Assembly (NCBI GenBank): GCA_964291675.2
Contig: OZ219866.1
Location: 1,440,001 to 1,504,000, forward strand
DNA: 64,000 nucleotides
Source: Alphaproteobacteria bacterium
GTDB lineage: Bacteria > Pseudomonadota > Alphaproteobacteria > MPNO01
Direction: 5' to 3'
Position 1 is the first letter of the stretch; each line of letters starts with the position of its first letter. A model generated the notes under the pieces. That model saw only the letters and a list, made by a program, of their open reading frames with translations. It searched no databases and was not told the origin of the DNA. Made by a program: the position numbers and the translations under genes. Below, in pieces: positions 7,133 to 43,442 of the stretch.

Positions 7133-7750
7133 ATGATCAACATCCCCAACCTGCTGACGCTGTTCCGCATCGCCCTGATCCCGGTGCTGGTGGCGTCGTT
7201 CTATGTCGGCGGGGATGCCGGGAGCCGACTCGCCTTCGCCGTCTTCGTGCTCGCCGGCGTCACCGATTTTCTCGACGGCTATATCGCGCGGCGGCTCGAC
7301 CAGCGCTCGGCGCTCGGCCGTTTCCTCGACCCCGTCGCCGACAAGCTGGTGGTCGCCGCGGCGCTGCTGATGATGGTCGGGTTCGGCCAGATCGGCGGCC
7401 TCTCGGTGCTGCCGGCGCTGGTCATCCTGTGCCGCGAGATCCTGGTCTCGGGCCTGCGCGAGTATCTCGCCGGGATCGACGTCTCCATGCCGGTCAGCCG
7501 GCTTGCCAAATGGAAGACCGCGATCCAGATGACCGCCATAGCGATCCTGCTGCTCGGCGGGGCGGGGCCGTGGAACGTTCCCTGGACGGCGATCGGCGAG
7601 GTCGGGCTGTGGGCGGCGGCGGTGCTGACACTGGTCACCGGATACGACTATCTTCGCTCCGGGCTGCGCCACATCGCCGGCGAGGATGCCGGGAAGGGCG
7701 GTATCGAAACGGCGGGTGCGCCCGAGAGCGGGGCGGAAGAGCAGGGCTGA
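7133..7750 (+). CDS. pgsA: CDP-diacylglycerol--glycerol-3-phosphate 3-phosphatidyltransferase
   Basis: NIPNLLTLFRI, TDFLDGYIAR...GRFLDPVADK motif; conserved position after uvrC. Confidence 0.95.
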   Translation: MINIPNLLTLFRIALIPVLVASFYVGGDAGSRLAFAVFVLAGVTDFLDGYIARRLDQRSALGRFLDPVADKLVVAAALLMMVGFGQIGGLSVLPALVILCREILVSGLREYLAGIDVSMPVSRLAKWKTAIQMTAIAILLLGGAGPWNVPWTAIGEVGLWAAAVLTLVTGYDYLRSGLRHIAGEDAGKGGIETAGAPESGAEEQG

Positions 7751-39531: not shown

Positions 39532-41241
39532 ATGCCGCAGCTCGATACCGACGTGCTGGTGATCGGCGCCGGCGGGGCGGGCATGTACGCCGCGGTCGCC
39601 GCCGCCCGCCAGGGCGCGCGCGTCGTGCTGGCGGACAAGAGCCTGGTCGGCCGCGGCGGCGCGACGATCATGGCGCAGATGACCGTCGCCGCCGCGGTCG
39701 GCGAGTGGCAGCCCGATCACTGGACCCACCATTTCGCCGACACCGTCGAGGCCGGGCGCGGGCTGTGCAACGAGCGCCTGGCGGCGATCCTGTGCGAGGA
39801 GGCGCCGCTCCGCATCCGGGAGATGGACTCCTGGCGGGTGGGCTGGGCGCGCGAGGACGGCCGCATGCGGGCGGTGATGGCGCCGGGCCACAACATCCCG
39901 CGCTGCGTCTATGTCGATTTCCTCAATACCGGGCCCGCGGTCGCCAAGACGCTGCGCGGCCGGGTCGCGCAGGGCGCGGGGATCGCGCGGGTGAGCGGGC
40001 TCCCGATCGCCGAACTCGTGGTCCATGACGGGCGGGTCGCCGGCGCCGTCGGGATCAACCTGGAGGACGGAAGGCCGGTCGGGATCGCGGCCTCGGCGGT
40101 GATCCTCGCCGCCGGCGGGCTCACCCGGCTGTTCCGGCGCAACAGCGCCTCGGCCAATATGGGCGGCGATGCCTATGCGCTGGCGCTCGACGCGGGCGCC
40201 GAGCTGATCGACATGGAGTTCCCGCAGTTCTTCCCGATCGGCCATCTGGCGCCGCGGCTGGTGGGCATGGACCCGATCATGTGGGACCCGTTCCGCTACA
40301 AGCTCGGCGGCCGGCTGCTCAACGGCAGGATGGAAGAGTTCATCGAGAGCTACGGCGAGAGCGACTCGGGCGTCTATACCGCGCCGCGCGACATCACCTC
40401 CTATGCCATCGTCAAGGAATGCGAGGCCGGGCGCGGCTCGCCGGGCGGCGGGGCGTATCTCAGCTTCGAGCACATCCCGGAGCCGGAGCTCAGGCTCGCC
40501 TTCGGACCGGTGATCGACCGGCTGGCGAAGAACGGGATCGACCTGACGAAGCGCCCCATCGAGGTCGCGCCGATCGCGCATTACCACATGGGGGGAATCC
40601 GGGTCGACGAACGGATGGAGACCCGCGTCGAAGGGCTTTTTGCCGCCGGCGAGGCGGTCGGCGGCGCCAACGGCGCCAACCGGCTGTCGGGCAACGCGAT
40701 CCCGGAAGCCTTCGTGTTCGGCGAGCGCGCCGGTCGCTTCGCCGCCGAACGCAAGGCGGAGGCGCCGGCCTGGCGCGGCGGCGACGACGCGCGGGCGCGA
40801 GCGCTGGCGGAGATCGCGCATGGCGGCGGCGAGGCGGCCGGGCTCGGCGCGCTGCTGCGCGAGCTGCAGGCGCTGATGTGGGACGATGTGGGCCTGCTCA
40901 GGACCGGGGACGGGCTTTTGCGCGCGCTCCGGCGGATCCGCGAGATGCGGGAGCAGGACCTGCCGGCGCTGGCGCCGGAGCGCAAGGCGCATTTCGATCA
41001 CGCCCTGCTCGACTGGCTGGACCTCAGGGCATCGCTCGCGGCCGCGGAATCGGTGGCGCTGGCGGCGCTCAACCGCCGGGAGAGCCGGGGCGCGCATCAG
41101 CGCGAGGACTTTGTCGAGACCGACCCGGCCTATGCGCGGAACCAGGTGCTGCGGCTATCCGGGGACGGCGCGCTCGAATGCGGCTGGACCGGGATCGTCG
41201 CCGAGCCGCACGCCCGGGCGCCGCTCGAGGCGGCGGAATGA
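39532..41241 (+). CDS. SdhA/FrdA/NadB-family flavoprotein, atypical active site
   Basis: IGAGGAG, DMEFPQFFP, APRD, AHYHMGG, GANRLSGNA, RRESRGAH. Confidence 0.85.
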   Translation: MPQLDTDVLVIGAGGAGMYAAVAAARQGARVVLADKSLVGRGGATIMAQMTVAAAVGEWQPDHWTHHFADTVEAGRGLCNERLAAILCEEAPLRIREMDSWRVGWAREDGRMRAVMAPGHNIPRCVYVDFLNTGPAVAKTLRGRVAQGAGIARVSGLPIAELVVHDGRVAGAVGINLEDGRPVGIAASAVILAAGGLTRLFRRNSASANMGGDAYALALDAGAELIDMEFPQFFPIGHLAPRLVGMDPIMWDPFRYKLGGRLLNGRMEEFIESYGESDSGVYTAPRDITSYAIVKECEAGRGSPGGGAYLSFEHIPEPELRLAFGPVIDRLAKNGIDLTKRPIEVAPIAHYHMGGIRVDERMETRVEGLFAAGEAVGGANGANRLSGNAIPEAFVFGERAGRFAAERKAEAPAWRGGDDARARALAEIAHGGGEAAGLGALLRELQALMWDDVGLLRTGDGLLRALRRIREMREQDLPALAPERKAHFDHALLDWLDLRASLAAAESVALAALNRRESRGAHQREDFVETDPAYARNQVLRLSGDGALECGWTGIVAEPHARAPLEAAE

Positions 41242-41594
41242 GCGCCGACAGCGTCACCATCCGGGTGCGCCGCGGGACCCCCGGCGAGCCGTCCCGGATC
41301 GAAGCCTTCACCGTCCCCTACAGCGAGGGCATGTCGGTGCTGGACGCGGTGATGTGGGTGCGCGGCCACGTCGATTCGACGCTTGCCATCCGCTACGCCT
41401 GCATCAACGCCAATGCCTGCAAGGAATGCATGGTGCGGGTCGACGGCAAGACCGGCTATGCCTGCACCTCCCGCCTGGGCGCGGACGGCGCGCTGATCGA
41501 GCCGCTGGACAACAAGGCGCTGATCCGCGACCTGGTGACCGATATCGTCCCGCCCAAGGAACGCCTCGGCGCCCATCTCGAAGAGGGCGGCTAA
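41238..41594 (+). CDS. 2Fe-2S protein equivalent to only the N-terminal domain of SdhB/FrdB
   Basis: MSVLDA, CINANACKEC...YAC, IRDLVTD; 118 aa; ATGA overlap with the flavoprotein. Confidence 0.85.
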   Translation: MSADSVTIRVRRGTPGEPSRIEAFTVPYSEGMSVLDAVMWVRGHVDSTLAIRYACINANACKECMVRVDGKTGYACTSRLGADGALIEPLDNKALIRDLVTDIVPPKERLGAHLEEGG

Positions 41595-41598
41595 CGCC

Positions 41599-41613
41599 AG
41601 CCCCGATTTCTCA
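41599..41613 (+). repeat. Left 15-bp inverted repeat of NYN cassette
   Basis: AGCCCCGATTTCTCA vs reverse complement of 42339-42353 (AGCCCGGATTTCTCA), 14/15. Confidence 0.55.
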
Positions 41614-41640
41614 TCGGCGGCAGGCGCTTGTCGCGCGAGC

Positions 41641-41669
41641 ATTGACAGGCGAGAACGAAACCAATACAT
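41641..41669 (+). promoter_or_regulatory. Sigma70-type promoter of NYN gene
   Basis: ATTGAC-N17-ATACAT, close to the alphaproteobacterial CTTGAC-N17-CTATAT consensus. Confidence 0.6.
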
Positions 41670-41671
41670 AA

Positions 41672-41747
41672 AGACGTAATCCGCTACGCCCGTAGGCGGG
41701 CACGTTCCCGAGACCCCTCACGGGCCAAGCCCTTGGGGGGTCTTTTG
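41672..41747 (+). ncRNA. Putative structured leader/small RNA upstream of NYN RNase
   Basis: Hairpin GCCCG-tagg-CGGGC enclosed by ACGT/ACGT, then 14-bp stem AGACCCCTCA.GGGC-caa-GCCC.TGGGGGGTCT (41711-41743) followed by TTTGTT. Confidence 0.5.
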
Positions 41748-42341
41748 TTGACCTCAAGAGCGGCAGTCTTCATCGACGGCGGCCATCTCCGGGTCCTCGC
41801 CAGACAGAACGAATTCAGATACGACCCGGACCTCATCGAGGCCGTCGCGCTCGCATGCGTCGACCCGGAGGAAGAGTTGCTTCGGGTCCTCTACTACGAT
41901 TGCGCCCCCTATCAGGGCAGTCTGCGATTGCCCGTTTCCGGGCAGCGACAGGAGTTCGCGGGCTCCGACGAGTGGCTTCGGCAGTTGGCGGCCAAACGGC
42001 AATTTGCCGTTCTCCTCGGTACGCTGAAGTTTCGGGGCTTCGTGCCGAAGAAAGTGCCCATATCATCGGGACCGCTATCGGACGACGACTTTCGGCCCCG
42101 CTTCGAGCAGAAGGGAGTCGACATGCGGCTGGGCCTCGACATTGCAACCCATGCTTCGGATAGATCGGTGGACCGCATTGTTTTGGTCACCGCGGATACC
42201 GACTGCTTGCCCATCATGAAGCGCGCCCGCACCGCGGGGCTTCAAGTCGTCTTGGTCGAATTGCCGAAACAAAGACTTGCGCGGGAGCTGCGCTGGCATT
42301 CCGATTTCGTCCGGCCAGTGCAGTGGCCAAGACAGGGGTGA
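41748..42341 (+). CDS. NYN-domain (LabA/DUF88, PIN-like) ribonuclease
   Basis: VFIDGG, YYDC, QKGVDMRLGLD, LVTADTD acidic motifs; probable TTG start at 41748. Confidence 0.88.
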   Translation: MTSRAAVFIDGGHLRVLARQNEFRYDPDLIEAVALACVDPEEELLRVLYYDCAPYQGSLRLPVSGQRQEFAGSDEWLRQLAAKRQFAVLLGTLKFRGFVPKKVPISSGPLSDDDFRPRFEQKGVDMRLGLDIATHASDRSVDRIVLVTADTDCLPIMKRARTAGLQVVLVELPKQRLARELRWHSDFVRPVQWPRQG

Positions 42342-42353
42342 GAAATCCGGGCT
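42339..42353 (-). repeat. Right 15-bp inverted repeat of NYN cassette (overlaps stop codon)
   Basis: TGAGAAATCCGGGCT. Confidence 0.55.
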
Positions 42354-42368
42354 CGCGGCGGGGTGCCC

Positions 42369-43442
42369 TCACGCGACGGTCCAGACCGTCTCCGAGAACC
42401 CGCATTCCCGACAGTCGCGCAGATACGCGTCGCGCTCGCTGCGAATCCGCACCCTGGCATTGCGCCGGCCCTTCGCTCCGCATGCCGAGCACACGAGAGG
42501 CATGAGCGTGTTCCTGCCGCAGGAATCGCAGATCCAGAAATACCCGTGATCGCCGGAACCCGCGACAAGCTCCCGGCCATCGCAATGCCGGCACGCCGCT
42601 CCGCCGGCCGGAGCGCCATCGCCGCGCCCGGCGCCGCTTCGCCGGGCAACGTGGTCGTCGACCGGGTTGTCGCGGCGCGCCGGCGGATCGTCCGGATCGT
42701 CCGCGTTCAGCGCCGCGAGAAACCCGGCCACGCCCGCCACGTCCTCGGACGCCATGCGCCACCCGCCATAGGAGCGGCCCCGACCGACGCACAGGATGCC
42801 GGAGCCCTTGCGATGCCGGCCGATCTCGCGGCAGACCCTGTCCGGGATCGTATCCGCCTTGCCGACGAGTGGCGGGAACGCCTGCCCGGGCCGCTTGCGG
42901 CCGTCGATCTTCTCGATGATCCCGTAATCCGAGACCGCGAAGACCAGCTGCAGCGGTGCGTGCCGGAACCCGAGCTGGTCGGTCCCGTCCACGATCTTCG
43001 CGACGGTGCGGGATCCGAAGGGCAGCTTCCCGACCAGCTCCTCGCGGCGGCGTTCGAGGAAGCCGCGCAGGAATTCGGCCTGGGTCTCCGCCCGTTCGAT
43101 CGGGCACGGCATCTCCGTCTCTCTTCCCCGGCAGGAGCGGATCCACTCGTATCCGTCCGAACCGTCGGAGCGGATCGTCACGTCGCCGGCCACCGACTTG
43201 CTTTCGACGACGAACATGCCCCAGCGATGGACGACCAGGTGGTCGAACCGGCACTCGCCCGGAGAGCCGTCCGGCTGCGGCTGCTCGGGATCCTCGATTC
43301 TCAGATCGTGCAGCACGTGGACCTCCGGATGGTCCTCGAAGCAGCATTGCAGGTGGAACGCCACGCGCCTCTCGGCCGCGGCGTCGGCTTGTACGCGGCG
43401 GTCCGATGTATCCGCCTTGTGCTGGTACGGTTTCGCGATCAT
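42369..43442 (-). CDS. NERD-domain nuclease with C-terminal zinc ribbons
   Basis: AERRV...VLHDLRI...FDHLVV...FVVESKS...PIERA PD-(D/E)xK pattern; CRHC, CDSC, CSAC, CREC. Confidence 0.82.
   Translation of the reverse strand: MIAKPYQHKADTSDRRVQADAAAERRVAFHLQCCFEDHPEVHVLHDLRIEDPEQPQPDGSPGECRFDHLVVHRWGMFVVESKSVAGDVTIRSDGSDGYEWIRSCRGRETEMPCPIERAETQAEFLRGFLERRREELVGKLPFGSRTVAKIVDGTDQLGFRHAPLQLVFAVSDYGIIEKIDGRKRPGQAFPPLVGKADTIPDRVCREIGRHRKGSGILCVGRGRSYGGWRMASEDVAGVAGFLAALNADDPDDPPARRDNPVDDHVARRSGAGRGDGAPAGGAACRHCDGRELVAGSGDHGYFWICDSCGRNTLMPLVCSACGAKGRRNARVRIRSERDAYLRDCRECGFSETVWTVA

Follow-up and report, generated by a model that had tools for sequence, protein, structure and literature searches.

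What governs expression of the NYN-type nuclease gene found in this window, by which we mean the whole stretch of 64,000 nt that was analysed, is a question raised by the DNA directly in front of it. Between 41642 and 41749, a putative promoter, a predicted RNA of about 73 nt and an intrinsic-terminator hairpin adjoin the TTG start of a 197-aa ORF, and the 5' neighbor of this leader is the gene for a 2Fe-2S subunit, whose stop codon lies at 41594. The small hairpin region of the leader spans 41679–41702. The features considered in this work are the following:

41589–42348, no strand: cassette of RNA and NYN gene, an insertion/deletion unit of ~0.76 kb, from the comparison with genus relatives
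41642–41647, + strand: −35 box TTGACA, read from the sequence; TTGAC is kept in most loci (per-position counts of 69–76 of 78)
41665–41670, + strand: weak −10 box TACATA after a 17-nt spacer; the cross-locus consensus is TAnnnT (T 58, A 71, T 51 of 78)
41677–41749, + strand: predicted ~73-nt RNA (leader and small RNA), 5' end placed from the promoter and 3' end from the U-tract
41679–41687, + strand: invariant single-stranded 5' segment AUCCGCUAC, from the alignments, 1–3 nt from the predicted start
41688–41701, + strand: hairpin H1 (GCCCG, loop UAGG, CGGGC), from the RNAalifold consensus
41710–41749, + strand: intrinsic-terminator-like hairpin (41710–41744) and U-tract UUUUGUU, from the fold, the terminator scan and arm complementarity
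41735–41740, + strand: GGGGGG, an SD-like run in the 3' arm of the terminator, read from the sequence
41748–42341, + strand: NYN nuclease ORF, 197 aa, TTG start, from Pfam PF01936

Taken by itself, the candidate promoter is weak. Its −10 box matches TATAAT at three of six positions, and a promoter scan of the leader region called no sites, since this box lacks the final T. The comparison across loci rescues it: the best sigma70-like match begins 47–56 nt 5' of an invariant octamer, CGTAGGCG, in 67 of 78 homologous loci, and the sigma70-like score reached at least 8 out of 12 in 67 of the 78 loci but in only 4 of the 77 windows used as controls. The sigma70 promoter that the preliminary description of this DNA had proposed is thus present with its elements and conserved at the homologous loci. 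Its conserved spacing suggests that the transcript starts 1–3 nt before AUCCG, and hence that the invariant segment would be the extreme 5' end of the RNA. A 362-nt contig from an RNA library (98% identical, low depth) covers 41648–41997, running through the terminator into the NYN gene; it begins 5' of the predicted start, comes from a library that may contain DNA, and shows no ends, strand or level.

The 89-nt leader stretch folds with a predicted energy of −40.1 kcal/mol (z = −2.97), and 2 of 200 shuffles folded equally well. The alignment of the leaders revealed a near-invariant sequence, (U)AUCCGcUAC-GCYCG-UAGG-CGRGC-A, then a short linker with a conserved UaU, single-stranded in its position between both hairpins, and, 3' of it, a sequence-variable hairpin with a U-rich tail. 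The first consensus hairpin obtained with RNAalifold, GCYCG/CGRGC, was designated H1. In an alignment of 82 leaders fitted to the model, a fit that favors the model (a plain MAFFT alignment gave the same picture, more weakly), the H1 helix pairs in 99.8% of the cells; its middle pair, which ranked first by mutual information, is CG in 50 sequences, UA in 30 and UG in 2, and is never unpaired. In the same alignment, six of the seven modeled pairs of the terminator stem show changes on both sides. The G-U pairs fit the + strand only, which assigns the RNA to this strand. An all-against-all mutual-information scan placed only the H1 and terminator pairs on top, with no other helix and no antiterminator. 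Of the two alternative hairpins described earlier, which can both form, GCCCG/CGGGC is backed by covariation, but CCGCUAC/GUAGGCGG is not: 92.6% of the cells pair, one pair is broken in 28 of 82 sequences, and the covariation score was 0.040 versus 0.037 in shuffles.

The covariance model R1 gave 65.1 bits at the leader, its sole strong match in the genome, and the leader is single-copy in the 4.8-Mb genome by both BLAST and the model, which rules out a repeat element. An Rfam 15 scan of 41000–43000 with E-values of up to 10 returned three chance-level matches, none in the leader; the abiF RNA motif (RF03085) did not match there at this threshold, and TEG147 (RF03535) was found neither in the window (E up to 10) nor in the whole genome. 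Tandem Repeats Finder returned 0 rows for 41500–42400, and there are no direct repeats within the leader. A leader peptide was discarded, given that the leader has no AUG and that the invariant core carries a UAG in one frame. Mimicry of stable RNAs, or pairing with them, was likewise rejected, because 8 of 200 shuffles did as well as the 29-nt core when compared with 55 tRNA calls and the rRNA operon. The best match of the core is an ARAGORN call of 94 nt with a poor D-arm (tRNA-Arg(GCG), G000:C2:570370-570463), probably false, which holds a 13-nt perfect complement of the leader 5' segment that was judged to be due to chance.

The second hairpin has the GC-rich stem and the following U-tract of a putative intrinsic terminator, and the terminator scan lists its inner part plus the T-tract. 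The stem and its U-rich tail had already been described; the stem has 15 pairs and a 1x1 internal loop (arms of 15 nt, 87% complementary), instead of the 14 bp initially given. By a crude terminator rule, 63 of 78 family loci were positive, against 206 of 3000 random windows. We analyzed the second hairpin in 75 loci, after dropping three of the 78 that the anchor pattern missed; it has at least 10 pairs in 71 of them, and at least three U within the 8 nt past it in 64. The start codon lies at most 8 nt from the end of the stem in 45 of the 75 loci, which places the ribosome site within the 3' arm, as at 41735–41740, while in 19 it is found 13–29 nt further downstream, after a separate SD. The fact that the terminator is kept even when a separate SD lies downstream suggests that termination itself is under selection, beyond the masking of the ribosome site, and this fits a fixed excess of RNA over protein. 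At the present locus, the GGGGGG run is indeed the only SD-like sequence, as had been pointed out; it precedes the in-frame TTGs at 41745 and 41748, both of which fall within the UUUUGUU tract. Homologues begin with M(K/R)xAVFIDGG, and the ATG of the gene in the genus relative G008 corresponds to position 41751.

The identity of the protein as NYN, claimed from the first inspection, was confirmed by a match to PF01936 above the curated cut-off (35.3 versus 24.2 bits, E = 2e-8, residues 102–187), which is the only Pfam match of the ORF. The AlphaFold model (pLDDT 90.6) has a PIN-like fold with the conserved acidic residues. Its best solved structural matches are the LabA-like protein VPA0982 (PDB 2qip, E = 1.1e-7) and the NYN domains of MARF1, with TM-scores normalized to the query of only 0.53–0.54. 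The fold and the acidic motifs are common to these LabA-like proteins and the present one, which differs from them in the model by extra beta-strand elements at about residues 55–120. In an alignment of 17 sequences, the motifs FIDGG, GVDMR and DTD are invariant, as are D10, D125, D131, D150 and D152, which we take from the NYN family literature to be catalytic. This subfamily comprises 1801 database proteins at E-values of up to 1e-5 (586 matches across one genome per species), and the best 120 of the 1801 are 61–95% identical and mostly of ~195 aa. The PADLOC defense models gave only weak HEC-09 and NYN matches (E ~1e-4), and the NCBIfam library only weak ones. None of the 169 plasmid and 65 phage records of the collections searched was a subfamily member of at least 60% identity, and the NYN proteins found there are all at most 35% identical.

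We then compared 80 homologous loci encoding NYN relatives of 52–77% identity, which according to the record titles belong to at least six phyla and include Alphaproteobacteria, Acidobacteriota, Nitrospinota, Dadabacteria, Latescibacterota and Rhodothermales, among others. The invariant octamer is present at most 200 nt from the NYN start in 77 of the 80 loci, and together with the covariation described above this demonstrates that the structure of the leader is conserved among homologues. The exceptions are a gene split by an insertion, with the RNA intact 3.7 kb upstream, a 5'-truncated fragment, and one locus (L101) that is the only intact homologue without the H1 core; it carries another first hairpin (GCCCC.../...GGGGU) and retains the promoter-hairpin-terminator layout. 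The differing leader of L101 lies 170 nt upstream of its NYN start. Every intact NYN of the subfamily among the 80 loci is therefore preceded by a leader of the same architecture. The R1 model yielded 82 matches in 85 sources, with a maximum of one strong match per source. No protein neighbor is conserved in 81 loci, the largest cluster beyond NYN and its antisense ORFs reaching 7 of 81, in agreement with the earlier remark that a protein antitoxin is not adjacent. About 22 nt of the RNA are invariant while the protein falls to 52% identity; partners that co-evolve do not usually show such a difference, and the RNA could be read by a universal host factor.

The comparison of 12 genomes of the genus, all of which contain the upstream operon, revealed that the RNA and the NYN gene move together. 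In six genomes the site is empty, the convergent genes being ~5 nt apart and the hairpin missing; G008 has the RNA and NYN and lacks the NERD gene, G010 has a NERD-domain gene only, G001 a diverged NERD gene, and G000 and G009 have RNA and NYN plus NERD. In G007 the site falls at a contig end. These differences delimit window positions 41589–42348 as a cassette of ~0.76 kb that is inserted or deleted independently, with the site acting as a hotspot for small cassettes of the nuclease type. The borders of the RNA-NYN cassette show no direct repeats, and the cassette encodes no DNA-binding protein or recombinase. The convergent NERD gene (window 42369–43442, − strand; 357 aa, PF08378 with E = 4e-14, Cys-rich C-terminus) is a separate insertion/deletion cassette, missing from G008 and six other genomes of the genus. 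G010 contains a second copy of RNA and NYN elsewhere (L111, G010:C1:4381282-4384367; also L012), of a Rhodobacter-like type, in which a ~3.7-kb element bounded by perfect inverted ends of 49 bp interrupts NYN past about codon 22, and the RNA (72.4 bits) and promoter are intact. In IMG/VR contigs, the cassette adjoins endolysin and spanin genes (L266) or integrases (L262, L267).

Searches from the RNA side were carried out with R1 and with the exact core pattern. Of 61 relatives, four gave a strong R1 match, in each case at a NYN locus, and in a phylum-wide sample of 151 genomes one further clear match was obtained, in G150 (40.8 bits). This copy (L119, G150:C321:14402-14481) is an orphan RNA gene with promoter and terminator, and the present NYN query found no NYN of the subfamily in this genome, which is 97% complete. 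The exact core pattern occurred in at least 120 metagenome loci and in 20 viral contigs, whose 970 nt downstream were scored with the subfamily profile. Among the matches listed, NYN follows the RNA in 95 of the 115 assessable metagenome loci (76 complete, 17 running off the contig end and 2 fragments), 20 have none, and 5 are too short; inspection by eye of the 20 listed without NYN detected one diverged NYN start and three short NYN remnants. Of the viral contigs, 6 have NYN and 14 do not.

About a dozen of the loci lacking NYN contain complete RNA genes of at least 50 bits, most of them with a TTGAC-17-TAnnnT promoter recognized by eye. The RNA-only genes keep promoter and terminator, and some NYN-less copies have a different 3' part. 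The genes that follow the RNA-only copies are mutually unrelated (SIR2_2/AbiH-like, metallophosphatase, OsmC, PAP2 and RimM). Two NYN-less H1 cores are located inside phage genomes, with a different 3' part, no evident promoter and an upstream terminator before them: one between the genes for a DnaB-like helicase and the portal protein (L264 2389-2457, +), the other 5' of the genes for the protease and the large terminase (L263 about 7632-7705, −). These RNA-only copies and the promoterless copies in phage operons may indicate a role of the RNA that is independent of NYN. Two viral contigs (L269 5808-5943 and L272 1248-1411) carry complete RNA-only copies 3 and 24 nt after a tRNA gene, that of L269 being followed by an SIR2_2/AbiH-like gene, and here the RNA may be released from the tRNA co-transcript. 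A general linkage to tRNA genes was discarded, as only 5 of 217 loci have a tRNA in the 300 nt that precede them.

More distant NYN paralogues from the same bacterial family (26–32% identity; L014-L017, L019, L020, L022-L024 and L026) were also examined. R1 matched at none of these 10 loci, yet by eye each of them has a promoter-like box, a stretch shared among orthologs and, ahead of the start, a GC hairpin with its T-tract; the crude rule detected a terminator-like hairpin in 8 of the 10, versus 206 of 3000 random windows. Outside this family, TEG147 lies directly 5' of a NYN homologue in Streptococcus phage Javan85 (L137 480-540; 52.6 bits; 22 nt separate its end from the NYN CDS) and in Lactococcus phage Bacchus (L138 467-528; 38.2 bits), both scores being below the gathering cut-off of 56.1 bits. 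Teg147 counts among the bona fide sRNAs of S. aureus (PMC5826253), and the two phage loci connect this known small RNA family with NYN genes. The TEG147 loci and the present one are alike in having a promoter, a hairpin RNA (~60 nt in TEG147), a U-tract and then a NYN homologue; they differ in the sequence and fold of the RNA, which in TEG147 is a single long hairpin, and the NYN proteins are ~33% identical. In Moraxella phage Mcat4 the order is TTGACA-17-TATAAT, ~80 nt, terminator, SD and NYN; just 3' of that NYN gene (L124 1373-1573), isrK and C4 antisense RNA matches above the gathering scores were observed. The type of RNA thus tracks the NYN subfamily, which argues for a cognate RNA-protein pair over a universal reader.

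The closest parallel for this arrangement is the AbiF/RCd22 module of the C. difficile phage phi027, in which a sigma-A promoter drives a ~100-nt motif RNA ended by a terminator, read-through yields the toxin mRNA, and RCd22 represses in cis and neutralizes AbiF in trans by direct binding (PMC12373285). As far as sequence signals show at the present locus, both have a single sigma-A/sigma70 promoter, a structured RNA bearing a conserved motif, an intrinsic (Rho-independent) terminator, and an RBS with an effector gene that lacks its own promoter. A dominant short RNA and an effector mRNA made by read-through, which are predicted at the present locus, would be further likenesses, and carriage by mobile elements is another. 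The two modules differ in their components: the RNA found here is unrelated to RF03085 and has one conserved module rather than two, and the protein is NYN (PIN-like) instead of Abi_2/HEPN-like, so that neither the RNA nor the Abi_2 protein of an AbiF module is found and Pfam detects NYN only. Binding and toxicity were demonstrated experimentally for RCd22/AbiF, whereas the NYN/RNA pair is known from its sequence.

With the type III toxin–antitoxin systems ToxIN, CptIN and TenpIN, the locus would share an RNA gene, a terminator and a nuclease gene under one promoter, with no protein antitoxin. The reading given in the preliminary description, a possible RNA-controlled toxin or defense system with type III architecture, stands in part: homologues retain the order promoter, short RNA, terminator, RNase, and there is no protein partner, but tandem direct repeats are missing and the putative toxin has the NYN fold and is not ToxN/AbiQ, CptN or TenpN. 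For these two reasons, the locus is not a canonical member of type III.

On the basis of the layout shared with AbiF/RCd22, we tentatively favor, with a confidence that falls a little short of even, a type III-like module in which an excess of the short RNA would throttle NYN in cis and probably bind it in trans. Transcription would start from the sigma70-type promoter at ~41677, and the first 25 nt of the transcript would comprise the invariant AUCCGCUAC segment and H1, with the strong intrinsic terminator next. Such a terminator would end most transcripts as the ~73-nt RNA, leaving the NYN ORF to be reached by read-through only; as the SD would in addition be locked in the terminator stem, NYN synthesis may be held down at two levels. 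This NYN subfamily most likely has the invariant 5' module as its specific ligand. Termination and occlusion of the ribosome site would then make up the cis action of the RNA, and binding and restraint of the nuclease its action in trans, in the manner of RCd22 with AbiF and of the type III RNA antitoxins; the model supposes accumulation of the short RNA, its binding to NYN and a harmful effect of unrestrained NYN. The existence of RNA-only genes, the absence of any leaderless intact NYN among the 80 loci and the NYN-less phage copies fit this proposal, and the asymmetry between the first two, judged from the sequences, is what would be expected for an antidote. Against it are the lack of tandem repeats, the lack of relationship of NYN to known type III toxins, the weak PADLOC matches and the absence of close subfamily members from the plasmid and phage collections, together with the unusual invariance of the ~22 nt and the RNA-only copies discussed above.

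A different possibility, which we consider rather improbable and still deserving of attention, is that the leader is an autoregulatory substrate: NYN would cut or recognize H1 in its own leader as negative feedback, and what it really targets would be the other H1 copies, including those in phages. Negative feedback by cutting of the own 5' leader is known for RNase III, RNase E and PNPase. The autoregulatory leaders of E. coli rnc, rne and pnp resemble the present one in being structured and directly 5' of an RNase gene, whose product plausibly recognizes its own leader; they are not known to have a promoter-proximal intrinsic terminator or to occur as free-standing RNA genes, and the present family has both. 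The strictly cis, single-copy layout, the single-stranded UAU between the hairpins, the H1 cores 5' of structural and packaging genes in phage operons and the fact that each NYN subfamily has its own leader all agree with a substrate. The terminator, however, is kept everywhere, although feedback by cleavage does not need a conserved one, and RNA-only genes with promoter and terminator are easier to understand as sources of an expressed RNA than as target sites.

It is also conceivable, although we think it unlikely, that the locus represents a new family of abortive-infection or toxin systems with an RNA antidote, itself part of a whole class in which each bacterial NYN subfamily would have a cognate small RNA and the NYN-less H1 copies of phages would be decoys that disarm the host nuclease. 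Phages are known to escape ToxIN by means of a pseudo-ToxI, and the orphan phage copies of the RNA resemble such an escape.

H1 could instead be a cis element independent of NYN, read by universal host machinery or by a small ligand (a put-like modifier of RNA polymerase, a riboswitch or an RNase entry site) and gating read-through of the terminator into any gene that follows. The invariance of the sequence across phyla would be understandable, as would the presence of the core before SIR2_2/AbiH-like and metallophosphatase genes and before structural genes of phages; the leaders also retain the capacity to form a possible alternative 5' hairpin. Nevertheless, NYN is the gene found in 95 of the 115 assessable loci among the matches listed on the RNA side, the remaining downstream genes have nothing in common, covariation gave no sign of an antiterminator, and the use of different RNAs by distant NYN subfamilies favors a cognate protein. 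We therefore regard a NYN-independent element as quite unlikely.

A function at the DNA level, with GCCCG-N4-CGGGC as a recombination site or operator, seems very improbable. Within this palindrome the covarying pair occupies symmetric positions, and symmetric half-sites can covary too; moreover, the cassette is mobile and a few copies abut tRNA 3' ends. The U-G and G-U intermediates nonetheless fit RNA pairing, the conserved flanks are asymmetric, the cassette has no DNA-binding protein, recombinase or border direct repeats, and the low count of upstream tRNA genes given above (5 of 217) argues the same way. Finally, the idea that the hairpin, located 115 nt past the upstream stop codon and on the same strand, is the ordinary terminator of the upstream flavoprotein/Fe-S operon with a chance promoter next to it is refuted by the empty-site relatives, which lack the hairpin in the ~5 nt between their convergent genes, and the element also travels with NYN to unrelated loci and phyla, so that we give it practically no credit.

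Bacterial LabA-like NYN proteins are widespread and, to our knowledge, most have no assigned function; nor do we know of an RNA partner reported for the solved NYN relatives. We found nothing in the open-access literature text on an RNA linked to NYN, and the pair, encountered among hundreds of bacteria spread over several phyla, appears to be an undescribed portable unit that resembles RNA-controlled toxin systems. One large NYN subfamily is now tied to a dedicated RNA that is near-invariant across phyla, and the leader is a candidate RNA family absent from Rfam. The NYN family thereby gains a concrete mechanism that can be tested, namely, a nuclease activity restrained by RNA. If the RNA is an antidote, RNA-antitoxin systems would extend to a new nuclease fold and to a non-repetitive RNA, with possible phage counter-measures; and if the phage copies are decoys, they would constitute the second natural case of antitoxin mimicry by phages.
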